From positions 1-31,542 of the IMG/VR virus record IMGVR_UViG_3300025635_000106: a DNA stretch of 31,542 nucleotides; one strand, 5' to 3'. The notes below the pieces were generated by a model, which ran no database searches, was not told the DNA's origin, and saw only the letters and a program-made list of their open reading frames with translations. This document shows positions 6,213-29,559 of the stretch, piece by piece; the first letter of the stretch is position 1, and the number at the start of each line of letters is the position of its first letter. The position numbers and the translations under genes are program-made. Source of the DNA: a virus. Lineage: Duplodnaviria; Caudoviricetes.

Positions 6213-7034
6213 ATGAAAGAGTTTTTCTTCATCTCTGGTTTGCCAAGGTCAGGCTCAACCCTGCTCTCGGCTATTCTGCGTCAGAATCCTGACTTCTACG
6301 CTGATATTTCCTCTCCAGTACAAGGCTTGGTGGCATCAACCATCAATGTCATTACAGGAAGCGAAAGCAACCACTTGATAGATGAAGACAGACGCAAACA
6401 CATTTTAAAGTCTTTGTTTAATGCTTACTACGAATCTGTAAGCCCTAAGACTGTATTTGACACTAGCAGGGGATGGACTGCCAAAACATCATTGCTAAAA
6501 GACTTGTACCCACAGACTAAGATTATTTGCTGTGTGCGTGATTTGCCTTGGATACTAGACAGTTTTGAGCGTATTGCTGCTAAGAATTCACTTTATGGTG
6601 CAACCTTAGTTGACGATGAGGCAAAGCAAACAGTCACCACAAGATGCGATGCTTTGATGGATGTTAAAAAAGAAGGTCAAGTGGTCAAGCCTTATTACTT
6701 CTTAGAAGAAGGATTATTGCTAAACCCAGACATGATTTTATTGGTTGAGTATGAATCTTTGTGTAAGCAACCAGAAAGTGTGATGCGTGAGATTTATGGG
6801 TTTATTGGTAAGCCCTACTTTGACCATGACTTTAAGAATGTTGAATACGAAAACGAAATGTTTGACAAAGCGTTAAACATGAAAAGTTTACACACAGTCA
6901 GAAAAGAAGTTTCTTGGCAAGAACGTCCATCAATACTTCCCAAATCAGTTTGGGATAAATATAATGGTAAAGAGTTCTGGCGTACATCAGTACCAGAGTT
7001 TGCAATCAAACAACTGTATAAGGTCAAGGGATGA
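6213..7034 (+). CDS. Sulfotransferase family protein
   Basis: 5'-PSB loop GLPRSGSTLL, 3'-PB motif VRDLPWILDSF, VEYESL. Confidence 0.85.
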   Translation: MKEFFFISGLPRSGSTLLSAILRQNPDFYADISSPVQGLVASTINVITGSESNHLIDEDRRKHILKSLFNAYYESVSPKTVFDTSRGWTAKTSLLKDLYPQTKIICCVRDLPWILDSFERIAAKNSLYGATLVDDEAKQTVTTRCDALMDVKKEGQVVKPYYFLEEGLLLNPDMILLVEYESLCKQPESVMREIYGFIGKPYFDHDFKNVEYENEMFDKALNMKSLHTVRKEVSWQERPSILPKSVWDKYNGKEFWRTSVPEFAIKQLYKVKG

Positions 7035-7819
7035 AACGCATATTAGTTATGGGTTTACCTAATGCGGGTAAAACTACTTTAGCACAGCACATTCTTGAAC
7101 ACTTGCAAAACGAGCGTAAGACAGTCATGTGGCTTAACGCTGATGATGTTCGCAAGCAGTTTAATGATTGGGACTTCTCCTATGAAGGGCGTATTCGTCA
7201 AAGTCTAAGGATGCGTGATTTAGCTGATAGCTACGATGTGGACTATGTTATTTGTGACTTTGTAGCCCCTCTTGTTGAGATGCGTAACAACTTTAAAGCA
7301 GATTGGACTGTCTGGGTTGATACCATTGATAAGGGTAGGTTTGAGGATACAAATAAGATATTTGTTGCGCCAGAGCAGTATGACTTTAGGATTACTGAGC
7401 AAAAGGCTGAGAAGTGGGGTGAGTTCATTGCTGCACATATCTTGGATAACCGAAAGCGTCCTGTCTTTGATTGGCAGAAAGAAACTGTGCAGATGCTTGG
7501 CAGATGGCAACCTTGGCATGAGGGTCATCGTAAGTTATTTGAGAGAGCCTTGGCTAAAACTGGTCAAGTGGTCATTCAGATTAGAGACTGTCAAGGCTGG
7601 AACGGCTCAAACCCTTTTGCGTCTAATCAGGTTAAGAACTTTATCAAGCGTGATTTAGACCCTTTATATCAAGGTCAGTACGAGATTCAGCTTGTGCCAA
7701 ATATTGTTAACATCACATATGGCAGGGATGTGGGATATAAGATTGAGCAAGAATCTTTTGACGATGCTACTCACGCAATATCAGCAACCAAGATACGCAA
7801 AGAAATGGGTATGGGTTGA
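7031..7819 (+). CDS. Adenylylsulfate-kinase-like domain fused to an HxGH nucleotidyltransferase domain
   Basis: P-loop GLPNAGKTT, LNADDVR, ICDFVAP; C-terminal GRWQPWHEGH and ISATKIR. Confidence 0.8.
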   Translation: MKRILVMGLPNAGKTTLAQHILEHLQNERKTVMWLNADDVRKQFNDWDFSYEGRIRQSLRMRDLADSYDVDYVICDFVAPLVEMRNNFKADWTVWVDTIDKGRFEDTNKIFVAPEQYDFRITEQKAEKWGEFIAAHILDNRKRPVFDWQKETVQMLGRWQPWHEGHRKLFERALAKTGQVVIQIRDCQGWNGSNPFASNQVKNFIKRDLDPLYQGQYEIQLVPNIVNITYGRDVGYKIEQESFDDATHAISATKIRKEMGMG

Positions 7820-14889: not shown

Positions 14890-15119
14890 AAGACTTGTTT
14901 GGTGACGAAGAATTTAATTGGGAGAAGGAGTGGGTTGGTATGCCTGAGTTTATTCAAGATGACCTGACTGAGATACACAGCATTACTGTCCACTTCCTGA
15001 CAACAGAAGACATGATTAAGTTTTCTGAGTTGATTGGCAGAAACATCACATTCACAACCAAGAGCGTTTTGTTTCCTGTAACCCAGACAGAAAAAAAGGT
15101 GTGGGTAGATGAATCCTAA
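14886..15119 (+). CDS. Small acidic protein, glycosyltransferase partner candidate
   Basis: EWVGMPEF motif; overlaps both neighbours. Confidence 0.6.
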   Translation: MKDLFGDEEFNWEKEWVGMPEFIQDDLTEIHSITVHFLTTEDMIKFSELIGRNITFTTKSVLFPVTQTEKKVWVDES

Positions 15120-15966
15120 ACACCCTGTTTACATTGTCTCCAAAGGCAGATGGGAATCTCGTCTGACGAGCAAAGCATTTGAAGAAATGAAAGTTCCGTA
15201 CTTTATCGTTGTTGAGCAACAAGAATACGACAACTATGCGTCAGTTATTGCGCCAGAGAAAATCCTAGTTCTTGATAAACAATATCTGCGTGATTACGAT
15301 ACTTGCGACAACTTGGGAAACACTCTGGGAGTTGGGCCTGGCGCAGCAAGGAACTTCTGCTGGCAGCACTCAATCTCTATCGGTGCATCTTGGCATTGGG
15401 TGCTGGACGACAACATTGATGGCTTCTGTCGCTTAAACCGCAACGAGCGTCACAAGGTTACTTCTGGGACTATCTTTCGCATTGCAGAGGACTTTGTTGA
15501 GCGTTACGAGAATGTCTCTCAGGCAGGGTTTGAGTATCGTTTCTTTGCTGGTGGCAGCAGACGCAAAAAGCCTCCGTTTCGACTTAACACTAGGATTTAC
15601 TCTTGCATCTTGAACAGGAACGATGTTCCTTATCGCTGGAGAGGTAGATACAACGAAGACACAGACCTTTCGCTGCGGATGCTCAAAGATGGCTGGTGTA
15701 CTGTTTTGTTTCAATGCTTCTTGCAAAACAAAGCTGCTACACAAACTGTCAAAGGCGGTAACACAGCAGAGTTTTACGAAAAAGAGGGAACACTTCCTAA
15801 ATCACAGATGCTGGTTGACTTGCACCCAGATGTGTCAAGACTTGCGTTTCGCTATGGCAGACACCATCACCATGTTGATTACAGCAGTTACCAAAAGAAT
15901 CAACTGGTACGCAAAGAAGGAATATTTCCAGAAGGCGTAAACAATTATGGGATGAAACTTGCATGA
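15109..15966 (+). CDS. GT-A glycosyltransferase, TET-associated/GREB1-like type
   Basis: PVYIVSKGR, GPGAARN, HWVLDDNI, RIYSCIL, YNEDTDLSLR, KGGNT. Confidence 0.75.
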   Translation: MNPKHPVYIVSKGRWESRLTSKAFEEMKVPYFIVVEQQEYDNYASVIAPEKILVLDKQYLRDYDTCDNLGNTLGVGPGAARNFCWQHSISIGASWHWVLDDNIDGFCRLNRNERHKVTSGTIFRIAEDFVERYENVSQAGFEYRFFAGGSRRKKPPFRLNTRIYSCILNRNDVPYRWRGRYNEDTDLSLRMLKDGWCTVLFQCFLQNKAATQTVKGGNTAEFYEKEGTLPKSQMLVDLHPDVSRLAFRYGRHHHHVDYSSYQKNQLVRKEGIFPEGVNNYGMKLA

Positions 15967-16181
15967 ATTTTCAATGGGATTTAGATGACTCCAGCCGAAT
16001 CAGAACACTTCAGAAACTGCGAAGCCCAAGAGTGGATACGCAGGTTCAACAAAAAGAAATTGACGATTGGCTCAAGCAAAGCGTTGCTCTGGTGGCAGGG
16101 AGTGTGCGTGGACTTGGAACGAATCAGAGGCGCATCCGCTACTTTGGATTTGAGAAACCGCATGACGAGGCTACGAAATGA
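15963..16181 (+). CDS. Hypothetical protein (frame A of dual-coded segment)
   Basis: ATGA overlaps at both ends. Confidence 0.35.
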   Translation: MNFQWDLDDSSRIRTLQKLRSPRVDTQVQQKEIDDWLKQSVALVAGSVRGLGTNQRRIRYFGFEKPHDEATK

Positions 16182-16200
16182 GGAGAGCAGCAAGAGTTGA
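15985..16200 (+). CDS. Hypothetical phage protein (frame B of dual-coded segment)
   Basis: EHFRNCEAQEW...ERIRG...LRNRM resembles small proteins that follow phage replication genes. Confidence 0.5.
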   Translation: MTPAESEHFRNCEAQEWIRRFNKKKLTIGSSKALLWWQGVCVDLERIRGASATLDLRNRMTRLRNEESSKS

Positions 16201-16444
16201 TGCTAACCAAGACCAGATAGTTTCTGCCTTGCGTGGTGCTGGCGCATACGTCTGGATTATTGGCTTACCAGTTGACTTGCTGGTTGGCTACAAGGGTCAC
16301 ACCTTTCTGGTGGAGATTAAAACGGACTCTAAAAAGCGTTTAACGAAGCTACAAGCCGACTTTTTCGAGAATTGGTCAGGTAGTACCTTGGCAAGAATAG
16401 ATTGCCCAGAAGCTGCTCTACGGATGATTGGAGTAGTCAAGTGA
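16178..16444 (+). CDS. VRR-NUC/PD-(D/E)XK nuclease (resolvase-like)
   Basis: ARVDANQ...PVDLLVGYKGHTFLVEIK...LTKLQ. Confidence 0.75.
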   Translation: MRRAARVDANQDQIVSALRGAGAYVWIIGLPVDLLVGYKGHTFLVEIKTDSKKRLTKLQADFFENWSGSTLARIDCPEAALRMIGVVK

Positions 16445-17490: not shown

Positions 17491-17661
17491 ATGAGAGTAA
17501 GAATTAGACAAGATGTTGATGGGATGTGGATTGTTGAAAGTAAAAAATGGTATGAGTTTGAGTGGCGTTGTCAAAAATGTGTGCTTGGTGATGACGCAGA
17601 AAAGAGAGCATTGGAATATGCTCGTCTGCTGCTAAACCCTGTAATCATAGAAGTCACATGA
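17491..17661 (+). CDS. 56-aa hypothetical protein (not in ORF track)
   Basis: SD AAAGGA; MRVRIRQDVDGMWIVESKKWYEFEWRCQK...; ATGA overlap with next gene. Confidence 0.6.
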   Translation: MRVRIRQDVDGMWIVESKKWYEFEWRCQKCVLGDDAEKRALEYARLLLNPVIIEVT

Positions 17662-17915
17662 ATAACAGACCCAATAACAGGGAACGGCTGCACTTGGCAA
17701 AGATTAAAGAAATGTCTTGTGGGGTCTGTAACGCTTCTCCTCCAAGCGATGCACACCATATTGTTCAGCATAACCAATACTTATGTATTCCTTTATGTAA
17801 GGATTGCCATCAAGGGCCACATAATGGCATACATGGGTCAGCTAGGATATGGTCTGTGATGAAGTTGGATGAGATGAGTGTTTTGAATATGACGCTTGCA
17901 AAACTTTTTAATTAG
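17658..17915 (+). CDS. Zinc-binding HNH-like nuclease (Ref/DUF968-like)
   Basis: CGVC, DAHH, IPLCKDCHQG, GIH. Confidence 0.7.
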   Translation: MNNRPNNRERLHLAKIKEMSCGVCNASPPSDAHHIVQHNQYLCIPLCKDCHQGPHNGIHGSARIWSVMKLDEMSVLNMTLAKLFN

Positions 17916-18746: not shown

Positions 18747-18994
18747 TTAAACGAGGTTCTGAGCAGTTTTCTGGCTATAACAAGCCCAAAGCTACTCCTA
18801 ACCATCCCACTAAGTCTCATGCTGTATTGGCTAAGTCTGGTGAGGATGTAAAGCTAATTCGTTTTGGTCAACAAGGGGCTAAAGGCTCACCTGATGGCAC
18901 GAAGCGTAACGATGCGTTTAAGGCTCGTCACGCTGAGAATATTGCCAAGGGTAAGATGAGTGCAGCGTATTGGGCTAACAAGGTAAAGTGGTAA
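18743..18994 (+). CDS. Small basic phage protein
   Basis: KLIRFGQQG...FKARH...SAAYWA motifs. Confidence 0.7.
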   Translation: MIKRGSEQFSGYNKPKATPNHPTKSHAVLAKSGEDVKLIRFGQQGAKGSPDGTKRNDAFKARHAENIAKGKMSAAYWANKVKW

Positions 18995-18996
18995 TC

Positions 18997-21123
18997 ATGG
19001 CAGATTTAGGTGCAGCATTTGGATTTTATCCACAGTTAAACAGGCGCAGACAGGGTAGCCCTGCTGATTCTGCTAATCTGCCTGTTGACGTTCTCAGGGG
19101 ACGTTTAGCGGGTTTGCTAGGCTTACCTGCTGACATAGCTAATTTACTTAGGTCACCAAGCCCCACAGAGATGTTTGGGGATACCAGCTATGAAGCACCA
19201 GCGCAGTTTCCTTACACAACAGAGAAGTTCTTAAAAGATTTACCACTTGCCCCTACGTCAAGAGTTGGTCAGGTAGCAGGTCAAGCAGCGTCATTTGTTC
19301 CGCTAAATCCAATGCCAGCCGTTAGGGGTGTGCAAAAGGTAGGACAAGTAGTAGGCGAAGAACTGGCTGCTACGATGATGGGTCAGCGTCCTAACAGCAT
19401 GATGAGCAAGGTAGTTCCACAGCCATTGTTTGCTGTTGCCCCAGAGCAAGGATTGTTATCTACTAAGGTAGAGCCTATTGAAAGCCTATTGCAGACTAAG
19501 CCACAAGCACCAGTTTCTGACATTGGTTTCTATTCAGCTACTGAGCAAGCAGCGTTGAACTTAGGCAGAAATAAGGGAACTGGTCAGTCTTTCATTAACG
19601 ACTTGATGAAAGCACCTGATGTTAAGAAGGAAGAACTGGCTTATACAGGGTTAGATGATTTCCTGAGAGACAAGCCTAATGTTACTAAACAAGAAGTTCA
19701 AGACTTTTTGGCTAACAATCGTGTTGAAGTTCAAGAAGTAACTTATGGCAAACAAGACTTTTCTAAATTACCAGATACACAATTACAAGATGAATATGTA
19801 AGAGTTAGAGGCTATAAGCCAGTAGATAATTATGGTGACGCAATGTCACGAGAAGAAATAATAAGTGAATTATCAGGCGCAATGGGAACAGATTTAACTC
19901 AATATGGAAAATATCAATTAGCGGGTGGTGAAAACTATCGTGAGATATTATTAAAATTACCAGAGGCAAAACCAAGCCCTTCAATAGAAATACAAAAACA
20001 AAACAGACGTTTAGAAATTACAAGAGAACTTCAAGATGATTTTTCAATGAGTGGCGATTTTGAAAGGGCGGCTAAATTAAAAGCTAAAGCTGATGCCATT
20101 GAAGAATCTATTAAAGAATTAGAAAAATTGCCTATTCCAAAACAAACAGAAAATTATCAATCTTCTCACTTTGACCAACCAAACATCCTAGCCCACATGA
20201 GGGTTAATGACCGAGTAGATGCTGATGGTAAAAAGATGCTATTGGTTGAGGAAATTCAATCTGATTGGCATCAGGCTGGTAGGGAGAGGGGTTACAAAAC
20301 CAAAGAAAGTTTGGAAAAATGGTATAGCCAAAACAAACTTGATGATGACCCATCTTTTGCTGACTTAAATAGTGAGCAAAGAAGCGTTATTGAGCGTAAT
20401 AGAAGTGCTGGAATGGGTGGTGATAATGCAGTACCAGACGCACCATTTAAAGACACATGGTATCAACTAGCATTAAAGCGACTAACCAAGTACGCTGCCG
20501 AAAATGGCTATGAGCGTATAGGCTTGACTACTGGTAAACAACAAGCAGGTAGATATAAGTTAAGTAATGAAGTTGATGAAATAAATGTAATTGGCAGAAC
20601 TAATATGGCTACTGGTGAAAAATCAAAATCAGTTGCTTTAGATATGAAATCTGGTCAATCTTTACGGATTGGTGTTAACAATGATGGAATTGTTGACAAT
20701 GTAAGCGATGAAAGCATTAAGAATTTCATGGGCAAAAATCTTTCTGAAGTTGTAGGTAAAGACATAGCTAAAGAAATTATGCTTAACAATAAAAAAACCA
20801 TTAGTGGCGAAGGTTTAGATATTGGTGGCGAAGGAATGAAGAAATACTATGACGAGATTTATCCTAAGTTCTTGGATAAGTACGGCAAAAAGTATGGCGC
20901 AAGCGTAGGTGAGACACAGATAACAACAGATTACGCTAGGGATGCAAGTGGGATTCCTGCTCAGCGTCCATCAAAAGAAACAATCCGTTATCTGGACATT
21001 ACTCCTCAAATGAAAGAGGGAACATCTAAGGGTCAACCCTTATTTGCTGCTACTCCATTACTACCAGCAACAAGCCTACTAGACGAAGAAAAGCGCAAAG
21101 AAATTACAAGTCTGTTAGAATAA
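18997..21123 (+). CDS. Large uncharacterised protein with EEIQSDW domain (polyvalent/virion-protein-like)
   Basis: GFYS, VKKEEL, NYREILL, SSHF...LAHMR, LVEEIQSDWHQ, PDAPFK, GMKKYYD motifs; probable ATG 18997. Confidence 0.6.
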   Translation: MADLGAAFGFYPQLNRRRQGSPADSANLPVDVLRGRLAGLLGLPADIANLLRSPSPTEMFGDTSYEAPAQFPYTTEKFLKDLPLAPTSRVGQVAGQAASFVPLNPMPAVRGVQKVGQVVGEELAATMMGQRPNSMMSKVVPQPLFAVAPEQGLLSTKVEPIESLLQTKPQAPVSDIGFYSATEQAALNLGRNKGTGQSFINDLMKAPDVKKEELAYTGLDDFLRDKPNVTKQEVQDFLANNRVEVQEVTYGKQDFSKLPDTQLQDEYVRVRGYKPVDNYGDAMSREEIISELSGAMGTDLTQYGKYQLAGGENYREILLKLPEAKPSPSIEIQKQNRRLEITRELQDDFSMSGDFERAAKLKAKADAIEESIKELEKLPIPKQTENYQSSHFDQPNILAHMRVNDRVDADGKKMLLVEEIQSDWHQAGRERGYKTKESLEKWYSQNKLDDDPSFADLNSEQRSVIERNRSAGMGGDNAVPDAPFKDTWYQLALKRLTKYAAENGYERIGLTTGKQQAGRYKLSNEVDEINVIGRTNMATGEKSKSVALDMKSGQSLRIGVNNDGIVDNVSDESIKNFMGKNLSEVVGKDIAKEIMLNNKKTISGEGLDIGGEGMKKYYDEIYPKFLDKYGKKYGASVGETQITTDYARDASGIPAQRPSKETIRYLDITPQMKEGTSKGQPLFAATPLLPATSLLDEEKRKEITSLLE

Positions 21124-27289: not shown

Positions 27290-28219
27290 ATGGAAAACAC
27301 CAACCCTAATGGGAGTGAAAGCCTAGATGTAAACCAAGCTGCTTCAGCGTTAATGGGGCTAATGGGTGACTCTGAGGAAGCCGAACAAGGCCAAACCGAA
27401 GAACAGCCAGAAGAACTACAAGCGTCTGATGAAGTTGAATATTCTGAGGAGGAATCCGAAGAACAACCAAAGCCAAGATATAAAGTCAAGGCATCTGGTG
27501 AGGAAGTCGAAGTAGAACTAGACGAACTTATCAAAGGTTATCAACAAGGTACGGACTACACTAAAAAGTCTCAGGCTCTAGCTGAACAACGTAAAGCAAT
27601 TGAAGCTGAACGTAGTCACTTAGAGTATGTGAAACAAGAACGACAGGCATACGCCCAGAAGTTGCAAGCGTTGGATAGCTTCCTTACGCAGCAACATCAG
27701 GGTGTGGACTTAGAAGTTTTAAAGGAAACAGACCCTATCGGTTATGCGGTAGCGGTAGCTGAACAGAGCCAGCGTGAGAAGCAGTTAGCAGTAGTCAGGA
27801 ATGAACAGCAACGAATTGCCCAACAGCAACAATCCGAGCAACAAGCCTCTCTGCAAAACCATCTCCGTCAAGAATCTGAGAAGCTAGTTAGTCTGATTCC
27901 TGAGTTAGCGACACCACAGGGTGATGCGGTACGGAAACAAATCCGTGACTATGCGAAGTCTGTAGGTTGGTCTGACCAAGAACTCAGTTCCGTGTATGAC
28001 AGTCGTGCTGTGATGACCTTGTATAAGGCAATGAAGTATGAGCAACTTCAAAAGAGCAAACCAGAGTTGAATAAAAAACTTGTGGCTGCCCCTAAGATGA
28101 TGCGTTCTGGTACTTCAGTTCCCCAAGCTAAGTCTTCACAAGACAAACAGGCAATGCAAAGGTTGCGTGAGACAGGAAAAGTCTCAGACGCTGCCAGAGC
28201 ATTTGAACGATTTTTATAA
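27290..28219 (+). CDS. Capsid scaffolding protein
   Basis: Acidic N-terminus; YKVK..GEEVEV.LDEL.KGYQ...DYTKK; directly before capsid gene. Confidence 0.8.
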   Translation: MENTNPNGSESLDVNQAASALMGLMGDSEEAEQGQTEEQPEELQASDEVEYSEEESEEQPKPRYKVKASGEEVEVELDELIKGYQQGTDYTKKSQALAEQRKAIEAERSHLEYVKQERQAYAQKLQALDSFLTQQHQGVDLEVLKETDPIGYAVAVAEQSQREKQLAVVRNEQQRIAQQQQSEQQASLQNHLRQESEKLVSLIPELATPQGDAVRKQIRDYAKSVGWSDQELSSVYDSRAVMTLYKAMKYEQLQKSKPELNKKLVAAPKMMRSGTSVPQAKSSQDKQAMQRLRETGKVSDAARAFERFL

Positions 28220-28237: not shown

Positions 28238-28559
28238 ATGGCTACCTATCAAACATATACCGCAATCGGTATGAGAGAAGACCTTTCGGATGTTATCTAC
28301 TCGATTTCACCAACAGATGTTCCATTTATGTCTTCCATTGGCAAGACTAAGGCAACTGCTGTTCTGCACGAGTGGCAAACAGACAGCTTGGCTGCTGCAA
28401 CTTTGGATAACTTCACAGTTGAGGGTGCAACAGCATCTGACGCTACTATGTCTCCAACTACTCGTGTTGGCAACCGCACTCAGATTGCACAGAAAACAAT
28501 CAAGATTTCTGGCACTTTGCAGTCAGTTGACAAAGCTGGTCGTAAGTCTGAAAAGGCGT
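28238..28559 (+). CDS. Major capsid protein, exon 1 (DUF5309/SU10-like)
   Basis: REDLSDVIYSISPTDVPF, HEWQTDSL, NRTQI, AGRKSEKA; SD GGAG. Confidence 0.9.
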
Positions 28560-28876
28560 TAGCTTTACATTAAGCGCCCATATTCGGTAACGAATATTGT
28601 AAAAACTAGGTGAATTGCTGGAAACTCCTTAGAGCCTCTAACACTACAGCATAGCTAGAAATGGCAAGTGCGAATGTTTGAAAAGATAGAGGATTGGACA
28701 ATCAGCAGCCAAGCACCCGAAAAGGTGAAGGTTCAACGACTAGGGAGTAATCCCGTAGAGCCAAGTGGCTCGAAGCGCCTAGCCCCAGAAATGGGTGATG
28801 ATATAGTCTGTTCTCATATGAAAGTATGAGCCTCGAAAGAGGGTTATGGAAATAACGAGCCATAGCAAACACCAAG
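28560..28876 (+). ncRNA. Group I self-splicing intron (IA2-like), 317 nt, no homing endonuclease ORF
   Basis: P AATTGCTGGAAA, Q AATCAGCAG, R GTTCAACGACTA, S GATATAGTC; P1 with U.G wobble; P3 and P7 pairings; terminal G; splicing restores the frame. Confidence 0.93.
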
Positions 28877-29505
28877 ACCAATTAGCTAAAGCGTCCAGCG
28901 AAATCAAGCGGGACATGGAAACAACCCTGTTGAGCAACCAAGTTGCTGCTAACGGCAATTCTTCTACTGCTCGTAAATTGGGCGGTCTGCAAGCATGGTT
29001 GAATTCTAACTATGATGGCGGTACTTCTGGCGTTGCTGGTGACTTGGGTACTACTGCTCGTACAGATGGTACAAACCGCACTTTCACAGAGGCAATTTTG
29101 CAAACTGTTGTTAAAGAAGTTTACGCTTCTGGTGGCAATCCTAAAGTATTGATGGTTAACCCTGCTCACAAGCAATTGGTTTCTGCCTTTACTGGTATTG
29201 CTGCACAGCGTTTCATGGCCCCTAGCAATACGCCTACAACCATCATTTCGGCTGCGGACGTTTACCTGTCAGATTTCGGTGCAATCTCAATTGTTCCCAA
29301 CAGGTTCATGACTTCCACTAACTCATGTGGCGAAACAGCGTTTATCCTTGACCCTGACATGGCTGCTATTGCTTATCTGCGTCCTTTCCAGACCAACGAG
29401 TTGGCTGTAACTGGCGACAACGAAAGCACTCAGTTGCTGTGCGAGTACACCTTGGAAGTGAAAAACCAAGCTGCTCACGGCATTTTGGCTGACTTGACAC
29501 CTTAA
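28877..29505 (+). CDS. Major capsid protein, exon 2
   Basis: (Y)QLAKASSEIKRDME, RKLGGL, YLSDFG, LRPF...LAVTGD...EYTLEVKN..AHG. Confidence 0.9.
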
Positions 29506-29523
29506 TCTAAGGTAACCCAAAAG

Positions 29524-29559
29524 ATGCCTCAGACTTAAACCTCTGGGGCATTTTCTTTT
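29524..29559 (+). terminator. Rho-independent terminator after capsid gene
   Basis: ATGCCTCAGA-cttaaacc-TCTGGGGCAT followed by TTTCTTTT. Confidence 0.8.

Follow-up and report, generated by a model that had tools for sequence, protein, structure and literature searches.

The major capsid protein gene of an uncultured freshwater phage is split by a group I intron without an ORF, an element of an already known kind. The intron is very probably a working ribozyme that removes itself efficiently and at low cost and that persists selfishly within a gene of high conservation. Rather than switching capsid production, it likely rides along as an optional element. The window, which is the whole stretch of DNA analysed (31,542 nt), is a 31.5-kb virus record estimated to be ~95% complete. 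Its head module is ordered terminase, SU10-type portal, scaffold, capsid, adaptor. The joined exons give consecutive PF17236 segments set in this module, identifying an SU10-type capsid, and the closest cultured capsid is that of Methylophilales phage Venkman (57% identical). A promoter scan of the window gave results at chance level. The features of the capsid locus are as follows.

27290-28219, plus strand, head scaffolding gene, upstream (phrog_3927, E 4.9e-55)
28238-28559, plus strand, capsid exon 1, 107 codons and the first base of Tyr108 (PF17236 SU10_MCP profile 8-105, E 5.6e-33; phrog_1328 major head protein)
28560-28876, plus strand, ORF-less group I intron of 317 nt that follows U28559, ends in G28876 and matches RF00028
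28877-29505, plus strand, capsid exon 2 (PF17236 profile 108-292, E 1.3e-58)
29521-29554, plus strand, terminator-like hairpin 3' of the capsid gene, from a consensus scan alone

Elsewhere in the window, no DNA polymerase or nucleotide-reductase gene was seen. After the tail-fibre region (6213-7819) lie an adjacent pair of genes for a 273-aa phrog_27463 protein, presumably sulfotransferase-like by its motif, and a 262-aa kinase (phrog_10255) whose second half is nucleotidyltransferase-like. A glucosyltransferase-like gene (phrog_842) occupies 15109-15966, and just 5' of the terminase genes a 711-aa protein (18988-21123) resembles part of a very large phage protein family (phrog_7348).

The first-pass annotation had called a group I intron from the letters alone, and all of the coordinates and motifs it listed are at the places given. 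The Infernal check that it proposed gave a full-model match to RF00028 (84.4 bits, E 2.5e-20, gathering score 50), the sole Rfam family above gathering score within the 31.5-kb window. The intron has stops in all three frames, and its longest stop-free run is 56 codons. Joining 28559 to 28877 produces a 316-aa capsid frame in which the Tyr108 codon is restored. Because 94 U/G joins in the searched range also keep the frame open, the intron boundary needs outside evidence. Intron-less capsid homologues, the other comparison proposed at first pass, read KAGRKSEKAYQLAK across the junction with no gap, and in 76 of them the intron is absent at exactly that point. The 28559/28876 join also had the top alignment score to an intact homologue (292 vs 279 for the runner-up join), and the solved capsid 9ny2_A has no break at the intron site. 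The P9.0 pair U28811-A28875, beside the terminal G, is A-U in 14/19 homologous introns and U-A in 5/19. This compensatory flip is therefore an independent mark of the intron 3' end.

Secondary structure was examined in an alignment of 19 introns at codon 108 (site 108), comprising the window and 18 other loci. They are 19 of the 20 distinct intron-plus-flank sets; L222, with a short exon 1, was left out. In the named structure 99.0% of 1672 helix cells are paired and 23/88 pairs have two-sided changes, a covariation count that is inflated by the relatedness of the 19 introns. Shuffled controls were 92.7% paired with 17.3 two-sided changes (0/500 as high), and slid controls were 31-41% paired. 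The two-sided changes are located in P5, the P5 extension, P6a, P7.2, P9, P9.2 and P9.0. The intron structure is kept by selection. Its elements are listed below.

28555-28559 plus U28560 with guide 28573-28578, plus strand, P1; U28559.G28574 is the 5' splice site, 6/6 pairs are invariant in the 19 introns, fold -7.0 kcal/mol
28571-28573, plus strand, in-frame stop TAA in the P1 loop; unspliced RNA would yield a 111-aa fragment
28580-28597, plus strand, P2 hairpin, from a motif check and pair counts in 19 homologues
28606-28808, plus strand, catalytic core, from the Rfam alignment and pair counts on 19 homologues
28606-28612 with 28776-28782, plus strand, P3 of the core
28616-28621 with 28702-28707, plus strand, P4 of the core
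28626-28628 with 28696-28698, plus strand, P5 of the core, with its extension at 28635-28692
28708-28732, plus strand, P6/P6a of the core
28738-28742 with 28804-28808, plus strand, P7 of the core
28743-28754, plus strand, P7.1, 100% paired
28758-28771, plus strand, P7.2, 100% paired with 4 two-sided changes
28784-28795, plus strand, P8 of the core
28811-28875, plus strand, 3' domain: P9.0 (28811-28812 with 28874-28875), P9 (28813-28830), P9.1 (28831-28842) and a long P9.2 (28843-28866), with two-sided changes in P9.0, P9 and P9.2
28877-28892, plus strand, exon 2 start with a predicted P10-like pairing, 28887-28892 with the intron 5' loop 28562-28567, from a fold comparison of alleles

Every cell of P3, P4, P6 and P7 is paired in the 19 sequences. 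Since these helices are mostly invariant, support for the P3-P7 pseudoknot and for P4-P6 comes from the consensus match, not from covariation. The G-C pair 28738-28808 in P7 is, from knowledge of the family, taken to be the G site. Subgroup IA2 is defined by P7.1 and P7.2 hairpins between P7 and P3', and on these hairpins the intron may be assigned as IA2-like. Elements of this sort define group I classes (PMC3984707, available text), and the IA2 subgroup has been reported as heterogeneous.

Most of the structure drawn at first pass was upheld, namely P1, P2, P3, P4, P7, P8 and the P7.1 and P7.2 hairpins taken as the IA2 hallmark. P5 with an extension longer than the Rfam consensus, P6/P6a, P9.0 and P10 are parts beyond that drawing. 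Of three proposed P9 hairpins with GNRA loops, the two GAAA-capped ones hold. The third, as a short GNRA-capped stem, was 72.6% paired (264/500 shuffles as high) and was replaced by the longer P9.2, a 7-bp stem (28843-28849/28860-28866) with a 10-nt loop that is 100% paired and has 3 two-sided changes. For the P10-like pairing, no partner outranks the 5' loop of the same allele for 9/10 exon-2 variants, L205 being the exception; the predicted duplexes are 6-10 bp and their strongest pairs lie 11-16 nt inside exon 2. The in-frame TAA is where the first-pass annotation put it, and a stop (TAA or TGA) falls at the same position, the fifth intron codon, in 19/19 homologues.

The intron is rare among close alleles. 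In the best 80 of 594 confirmed viral loci, the intron occurs at the same codon in 3, there is no interruption in 76, and 1 gives no information. Both exon proteins of the intron-less loci L004, L006, L007, L009 and L010 are identical to those of the window. Members of this intron family were recovered by two motif scans from 26 distinct viral contigs, and they also occur in 9 metagenome records, some of which are likely the same DNA. All 28 measurable copies from P2-based scans are ORF-less and 315-320 nt long, and no longer site-108 copy was present among the 25 loci of a P7-based scan. The exon pentamer required for P1 is present in 19/19 aligned intron-bearing alleles vs 1/76 intron-less alleles.

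Two capsid clades that are 44-52% identical share the site-108 intron family, with introns 83-100% identical, and the intron tree disagrees with the capsid tree. Segment-wise comparison of the clades revealed that the 5' loop tracks the host clade and that inner parts have been swapped. Because these mosaics keep the host-clade 5' loop, exchange between resident introns explains the tree conflict. Whole-intron jumps across distant capsid clades were rejected, as recombination between resident introns suffices. The window intron is one of the site-108 mosaics: its P9 region (28811-28876) is 1 base from that of L225 and its P5 extension 19 bases, and other segments have other nearest neighbours. 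Intron-mediated capsid chimeras were also sought, and none was found; in 19/19 measurable loci, identity to the window rises and falls in step for exon 1 and exon 2.

Firm transfer, as judged from sequence comparison, appears within a clade alone, at L213. The L213 intron is identical to that of the window, in a capsid with 80% identity across the opening 128 aa of exon 2. The exon match extends 31 bases upstream and 16 downstream, followed by divergence. Homing co-converts exons and reverse splicing does not, according to the available text of PMC2504315. The co-transferred exon flanks therefore suggest that the intron moves as DNA, by homing or plain recombination, and not by reverse splicing.

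No endonuclease ORF was found inside a loop of the site-108 intron in 28/28 measurable copies, and HNH, HNH_3 and GIY-YIG genes were found in 0/5 near-complete intron-bearing relatives. The ~95% complete window contains no convincing homing nuclease. It has an 88-aa nuclease-like ORF (16178-16444) weakly like the phrog_93 endonuclease and an 85-aa nuclease-like ORF with CxxC motifs (17658-17915, phrog_1588); neither has a Pfam match, and nothing marks either as a homing nuclease. A nuclease, if needed, would have been lost or would be supplied in trans. Collaborative homing (PMC3984707, available text) likewise pairs an ORF-less intron with signs of DNA-level spread, but it uses a free-standing or trans endonuclease, and none was found in the window or the five relatives. 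A second site in the same gene, at aa 19, presents three states. An HNH ORF lies in the 5' portion of the intron in L086 (795-1742), L109 and L111, a 568-nt deletion of the HNH ORF is seen in L123, and the intron of L106 is ORF-less. This is the usual gain-and-loss cycle. Co-conversion of site 108 from an HNH-bearing site-19 intron was rejected, as the site-108 loci of the P7 scan have no site-19 intron; their extra introns are near aa 26 and 241.

The capsid gene as a site for introns was examined with one 16-nt core motif in 9/64 parts of the collection, which gave 120 loci. The motif was derived from the window intron and the loci were not dereplicated, so that they form a biased sample and not a census. 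The SU10-type capsid family of the window is matched by 24 of the 120 loci. Within this family there are about seven intron sites, near aa 19, 26, 48, 58, 108, 116 and 241, those near aa 26 and 48 being placed by tblastn breaks alone. Automatic boundary calling gave no call for L111, L119, L153, L183, L186 and L196 and doubtful calls for L086, L109, L123, L146, L155, L162 and L198. An Rfam match was obtained in 20/20 loci tested, 19 from the SU10-type capsid family and one from a Vibrio phage.

The first 80 motif loci include 16 SU10-type capsids and 10 loci beside other major head protein families, 26 in total, and 8/10 of the latter have an Rfam match. The ten (L082, L094, L114, L121, L126, L129, L141, L142, L145 and L158) have the core motif beside eight other major head protein families, and L082 and L141 have two Rfam matches apiece. 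In five near-complete relatives, chosen for their site-108 intron, 8/8 Rfam matches lie in the capsid gene and none elsewhere. With the window included, all 9 of the introns in six near-complete genomes (31-37 kb) are in the capsid gene, with as many as three in one gene. New here are the SU10 capsid with introns at about seven sites and the confinement of all introns of six genomes to the capsid gene. The site-108 intron has also moved between phages with flanking exon DNA, a nuclease not being found.

Several other observations were made during these scans. Two or three ORF-less capsid introns, near aa 26, 108 and 241, are present in L241 (G004), L247, L239, L240, L249 and L252 (G005). A recurrent HNH frame 5' of the intron core and a dUTPase frame 3' of it occur in L088, L097, L100, L110, L143 and L152. 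Introns also occur in tape-measure genes (L099, L125) and in psbA (L113, L135, L136). A DNA match to Pseudomonas phage Pa_WF01 was set aside, its intron being in an RNA polymerase gene and not in a capsid gene.

Public sequencing runs were used to look for the intron in RNA. Part of the capsid gene is held by 24 runs from rivers, lakes and other freshwater, 21 of them on record as RNA, and four RNA runs were examined, all as assembled contigs and not as reads. Contigs of 2/4 runs (X1 and X3), from separate studies, contain a joint from the terminal G to intron base 5 (28876->28564), and the two sides of the joint have no letters in common. At 343 nt, the X1 record equals 313 nt and an overlap of 30 nt, a length that matches assembly of a closed circle. 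In the X3 record 131 and 186 letters flank the joint. Among 58 DNA loci that contain the P7 motif, drawn from overlapping sets without dereplication, no tandem or back-joined form was present. These results suggest that the back-joined contigs are likely the excised intron circle and that the intron likely splices itself out in nature. Two features are involved.

28564-28876, plus strand, circular intron form of 313 nt, from back-joined RNA contigs in X1 and X3
28562-28565 with 28572-28575, plus strand, predicted alternative 5' helix after exon 1 release, from RNAfold of the freed 5' end

In the predicted alternative helix C28563 lies opposite the guide G, so that circularisation would occur at U28564 and the cut would fall at the observed joint. 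Three of its pairs are kept in 19/19 introns, and two other registers are equal in pair count. P1 with exon 1 attached has a fold energy of -7.0 kcal/mol vs -3.3 kcal/mol for the alternative helix. Because P1 is far more stable with exon 1, these predictions make it most likely that the circle forms after the first splicing step. A circle can also arise through 3' splice-site hydrolysis without exon ligation.

The first-pass annotation had asked for RNA spanning the exon junction; the contigs of the four RNA runs contained no ligated exon junction of an intron-bearing allele. Exon-spanning contigs occur in all 4 runs and were rejected as spliced product, because they have intron-less codons between 28557 and 28879/28885 and so come from other alleles. 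Since intron-less alleles are contiguous as well, junction reads are informative solely with the codons of the window allele. Two more contigs fit a free intron and were too weak to count, an intron-only contig in X2 (28566-28779) and a contig in X6 that ends at 28876 with two unaligned letters beyond. An X3 contig skips 52 bases of the P5 extension (window 28637-28690), and loose ends occur in further contigs at 28613 and 28715; these are likely related introns with different peripheral parts. Group I splicing is known to yield shortened circles afterwards, and their biological significance is stated as unclear in the available text of PMC3679873. In Tetrahymena a linear intron likewise gives rise to a shortened circle after splicing; those circles are described in vitro (PMC3679873), whereas the present ones come from environmental RNA contigs and an uncultured phage. 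We found no paper on phage intron circles in metatranscriptomes, within a literature coverage that is incomplete and leaves most subscription papers outside.

The splicing steps proposed here follow the family mechanism (PMC3984707, available text). Ribosomes would stop at the P1-loop codon. A guanosine bound in P7 would then cut after U28559, P9.0 and P10 would position G28876, and exon joining would restore Tyr108. The freed intron 5' end could refold with C28563 opposite the guide G, where the terminal G would attack. Spread would occur by DNA-level gene conversion between co-infecting phages, as suggested by the travel of the intron with short flanking exon stretches. The capsid gene is a likely target because it ranks with the best-conserved sequences of small phages and no DNA polymerase or nucleotide-reductase gene was seen in the window.

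Other explanations were weighed against a working passenger intron. It is scarcely credible that the capsid gene is a defunct pseudogene, or that the insert is the relic of a dead intron or was created by assembly. The failure to see the ligated junction of the window allele in the RNA contigs examined would fit such a reading. Against it, each exon is intact and their proteins reach 100% identity to intron-less ones, 4 further viral contigs have introns 99-100% identical to that of the window and 26 have the family, compensatory changes maintain the helices, and the back-joined RNA begins precisely at the terminal G. We also consider it very unlikely that the intron spreads as RNA, with circles or linear introns reverse-splicing into the capsid mRNA of other phages and then being copied to DNA. 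A circular form in environmental RNA, the fact that no nuclease was found in the window and five relatives, and one intron family at the same codon of capsids 44-52% identical are all points in favour of such a route. The observed circle is without the first 4 intron bases, however, and because these are missing it cannot restore a whole intron. Moreover, transfers include flanking exon DNA, unlike reverse splicing (PMC2504315, available text), P1 would mispair in 75/76 intron-less alleles, and the cross-clade similarity is segmental with a 5' loop for each host clade, as expected of recombination between residents.

A regulatory role, put forward at first pass as a GTP/Mg-sensitive gate on capsid synthesis, is very unlikely; in it, splicing would respond to GTP or Mg and hold back capsid production in a starved host. 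It draws on the stop at the fifth intron codon in 19/19 homologues, on the requirement of splicing for guanosine and a divalent metal (PMC3984707, available text) and on the same switch idea proposed for other phage introns, where a GTP 'on-switch' is already published as a hypothesis (PMC11878797, available text). These features are generic, however, and most near-identical phages do without the intron: among the best 80 of 594 loci 76/79 informative close alleles lack it, five of them with identical exon proteins. An early in-frame stop is common to many bacterial group I introns and is thought to aid folding (PMC3984707). Rfam found no riboswitch or aptamer family in the window at E<=1, and thus nothing of the known families that would mark an allosteric intron. 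The scatter of introns over about seven sites, with as many as three in one gene, is what invaders would give and not a kept control element. Group I introns bind GTP at concentrations well under those in cells. The capsid intron of Mycobacteriophage LittleE is described as efficiently spliced (PMC3706429, available text). Another reading, speculative and on balance unlikely, is that the site-108 intron is a still-spreading immunity allele. The intron and recoded exon bases would shield the capsid gene from the nuclease of rival phages and would be copied in when that nuclease cuts an intron-less neighbour, the capsid gene being the sole intron refuge in small freshwater SU10-type phages.

The first-pass annotation had set the capsid location against the best-known phage introns, which lie in DNA-metabolism genes; its surprise value is not supported, capsid-gene introns being already in print, one of them proven by RT-PCR (PMC3706429, available text). 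That one, in LittleE, is also a putative group I intron in the major capsid gene that is absent from close relatives, and its splicing was shown by RT-PCR and protein sequencing. The LittleE intron is 819 bp with an endonuclease ORF, in the HK97-like capsid gene of a siphovirus (PMC3706429), whereas the present one is 317 nt, ORF-less and in an SU10-family capsid. Lactococcus phage Tuc2009, from another host group than the window phage, has a group I intron in its major head protein gene too (PMC3706429, PMC2504315). Uncultured crAss-like phages also have group I introns in the major capsid gene, several per gene; these were found via intron-encoded protein domains in large gut phages with many genes hit (PMC7886860, available text), whereas those described here mostly lack an ORF and, in six genomes of 31-37 kb, occur in the capsid gene alone. 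With the phage IA2-type introns (T4 td/nrdB/nrdD, SPO1, Twort) the window intron shares a common core with P2, P7.1, P7.2, an extended P9 region and an early in-frame stop. Twort orf142 has three ORF-less introns. This is a tail tube protein gene (PMC11878797), and short ORF-less introns are abundant in Jug phages (PMC12880540), both according to the available texts. No paper on introns in SU10-type capsids was found within an incomplete literature coverage, and precedents for ORF-less capsid introns may exist in the supplement of PMC11878797.

A cultured relative was found in Vibrio phage 1.232.O (MG592596.1), the top match among annotated phages (78.6% over 220 nt). It contains an unannotated 313-nt ORF-less group I intron near the capsid gene 3' end (L201:2465-2777), with an Rfam score of 83.1 bits, directly 3' of a capsid CDS annotated as 289 aa. 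Removal of the 313 nt gives a 317-aa capsid in which 46 of the last 47 positions match the intact capsid of Vibrio phage 219E41.1. The capsid belongs to a different family, with a weak PF13252 match. A free-standing HNH gene lies directly 3' of the 1.232.O capsid gene, and both gene and intron are absent in 219E41.1. An intron with an adjacent HNH gene is the layout of collaborative homing, and 1.232.O is a cultured system that permits a bench test of it.

What is added is modest, namely environmental evidence for a circle, a hot spot for introns in the capsid gene and a cultured relative open to testing. The element is of an ordinary sort in a less-studied place, and its use is practical as well as comparative. 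In annotation, a capsid gene with an ORF-less intron is broken up without notice; the capsid of 1.232.O is 28 residues short in GenBank. The preference of phage group I introns for DNA-metabolism genes has been called unexplained or mysterious (PMC12350094, PMC11878797, available texts), and the 26/80 loci beside a major head protein, in a biased sample, favour 'most conserved gene available' over 'metabolic switch'. If the immunity-allele reading were true, late-stage infection by phages in lakes and rivers would have a stable RNA marker in the excised circle. The back-joined contigs offer a direct view, in metatranscriptomes, of splicing by uncultured phages.
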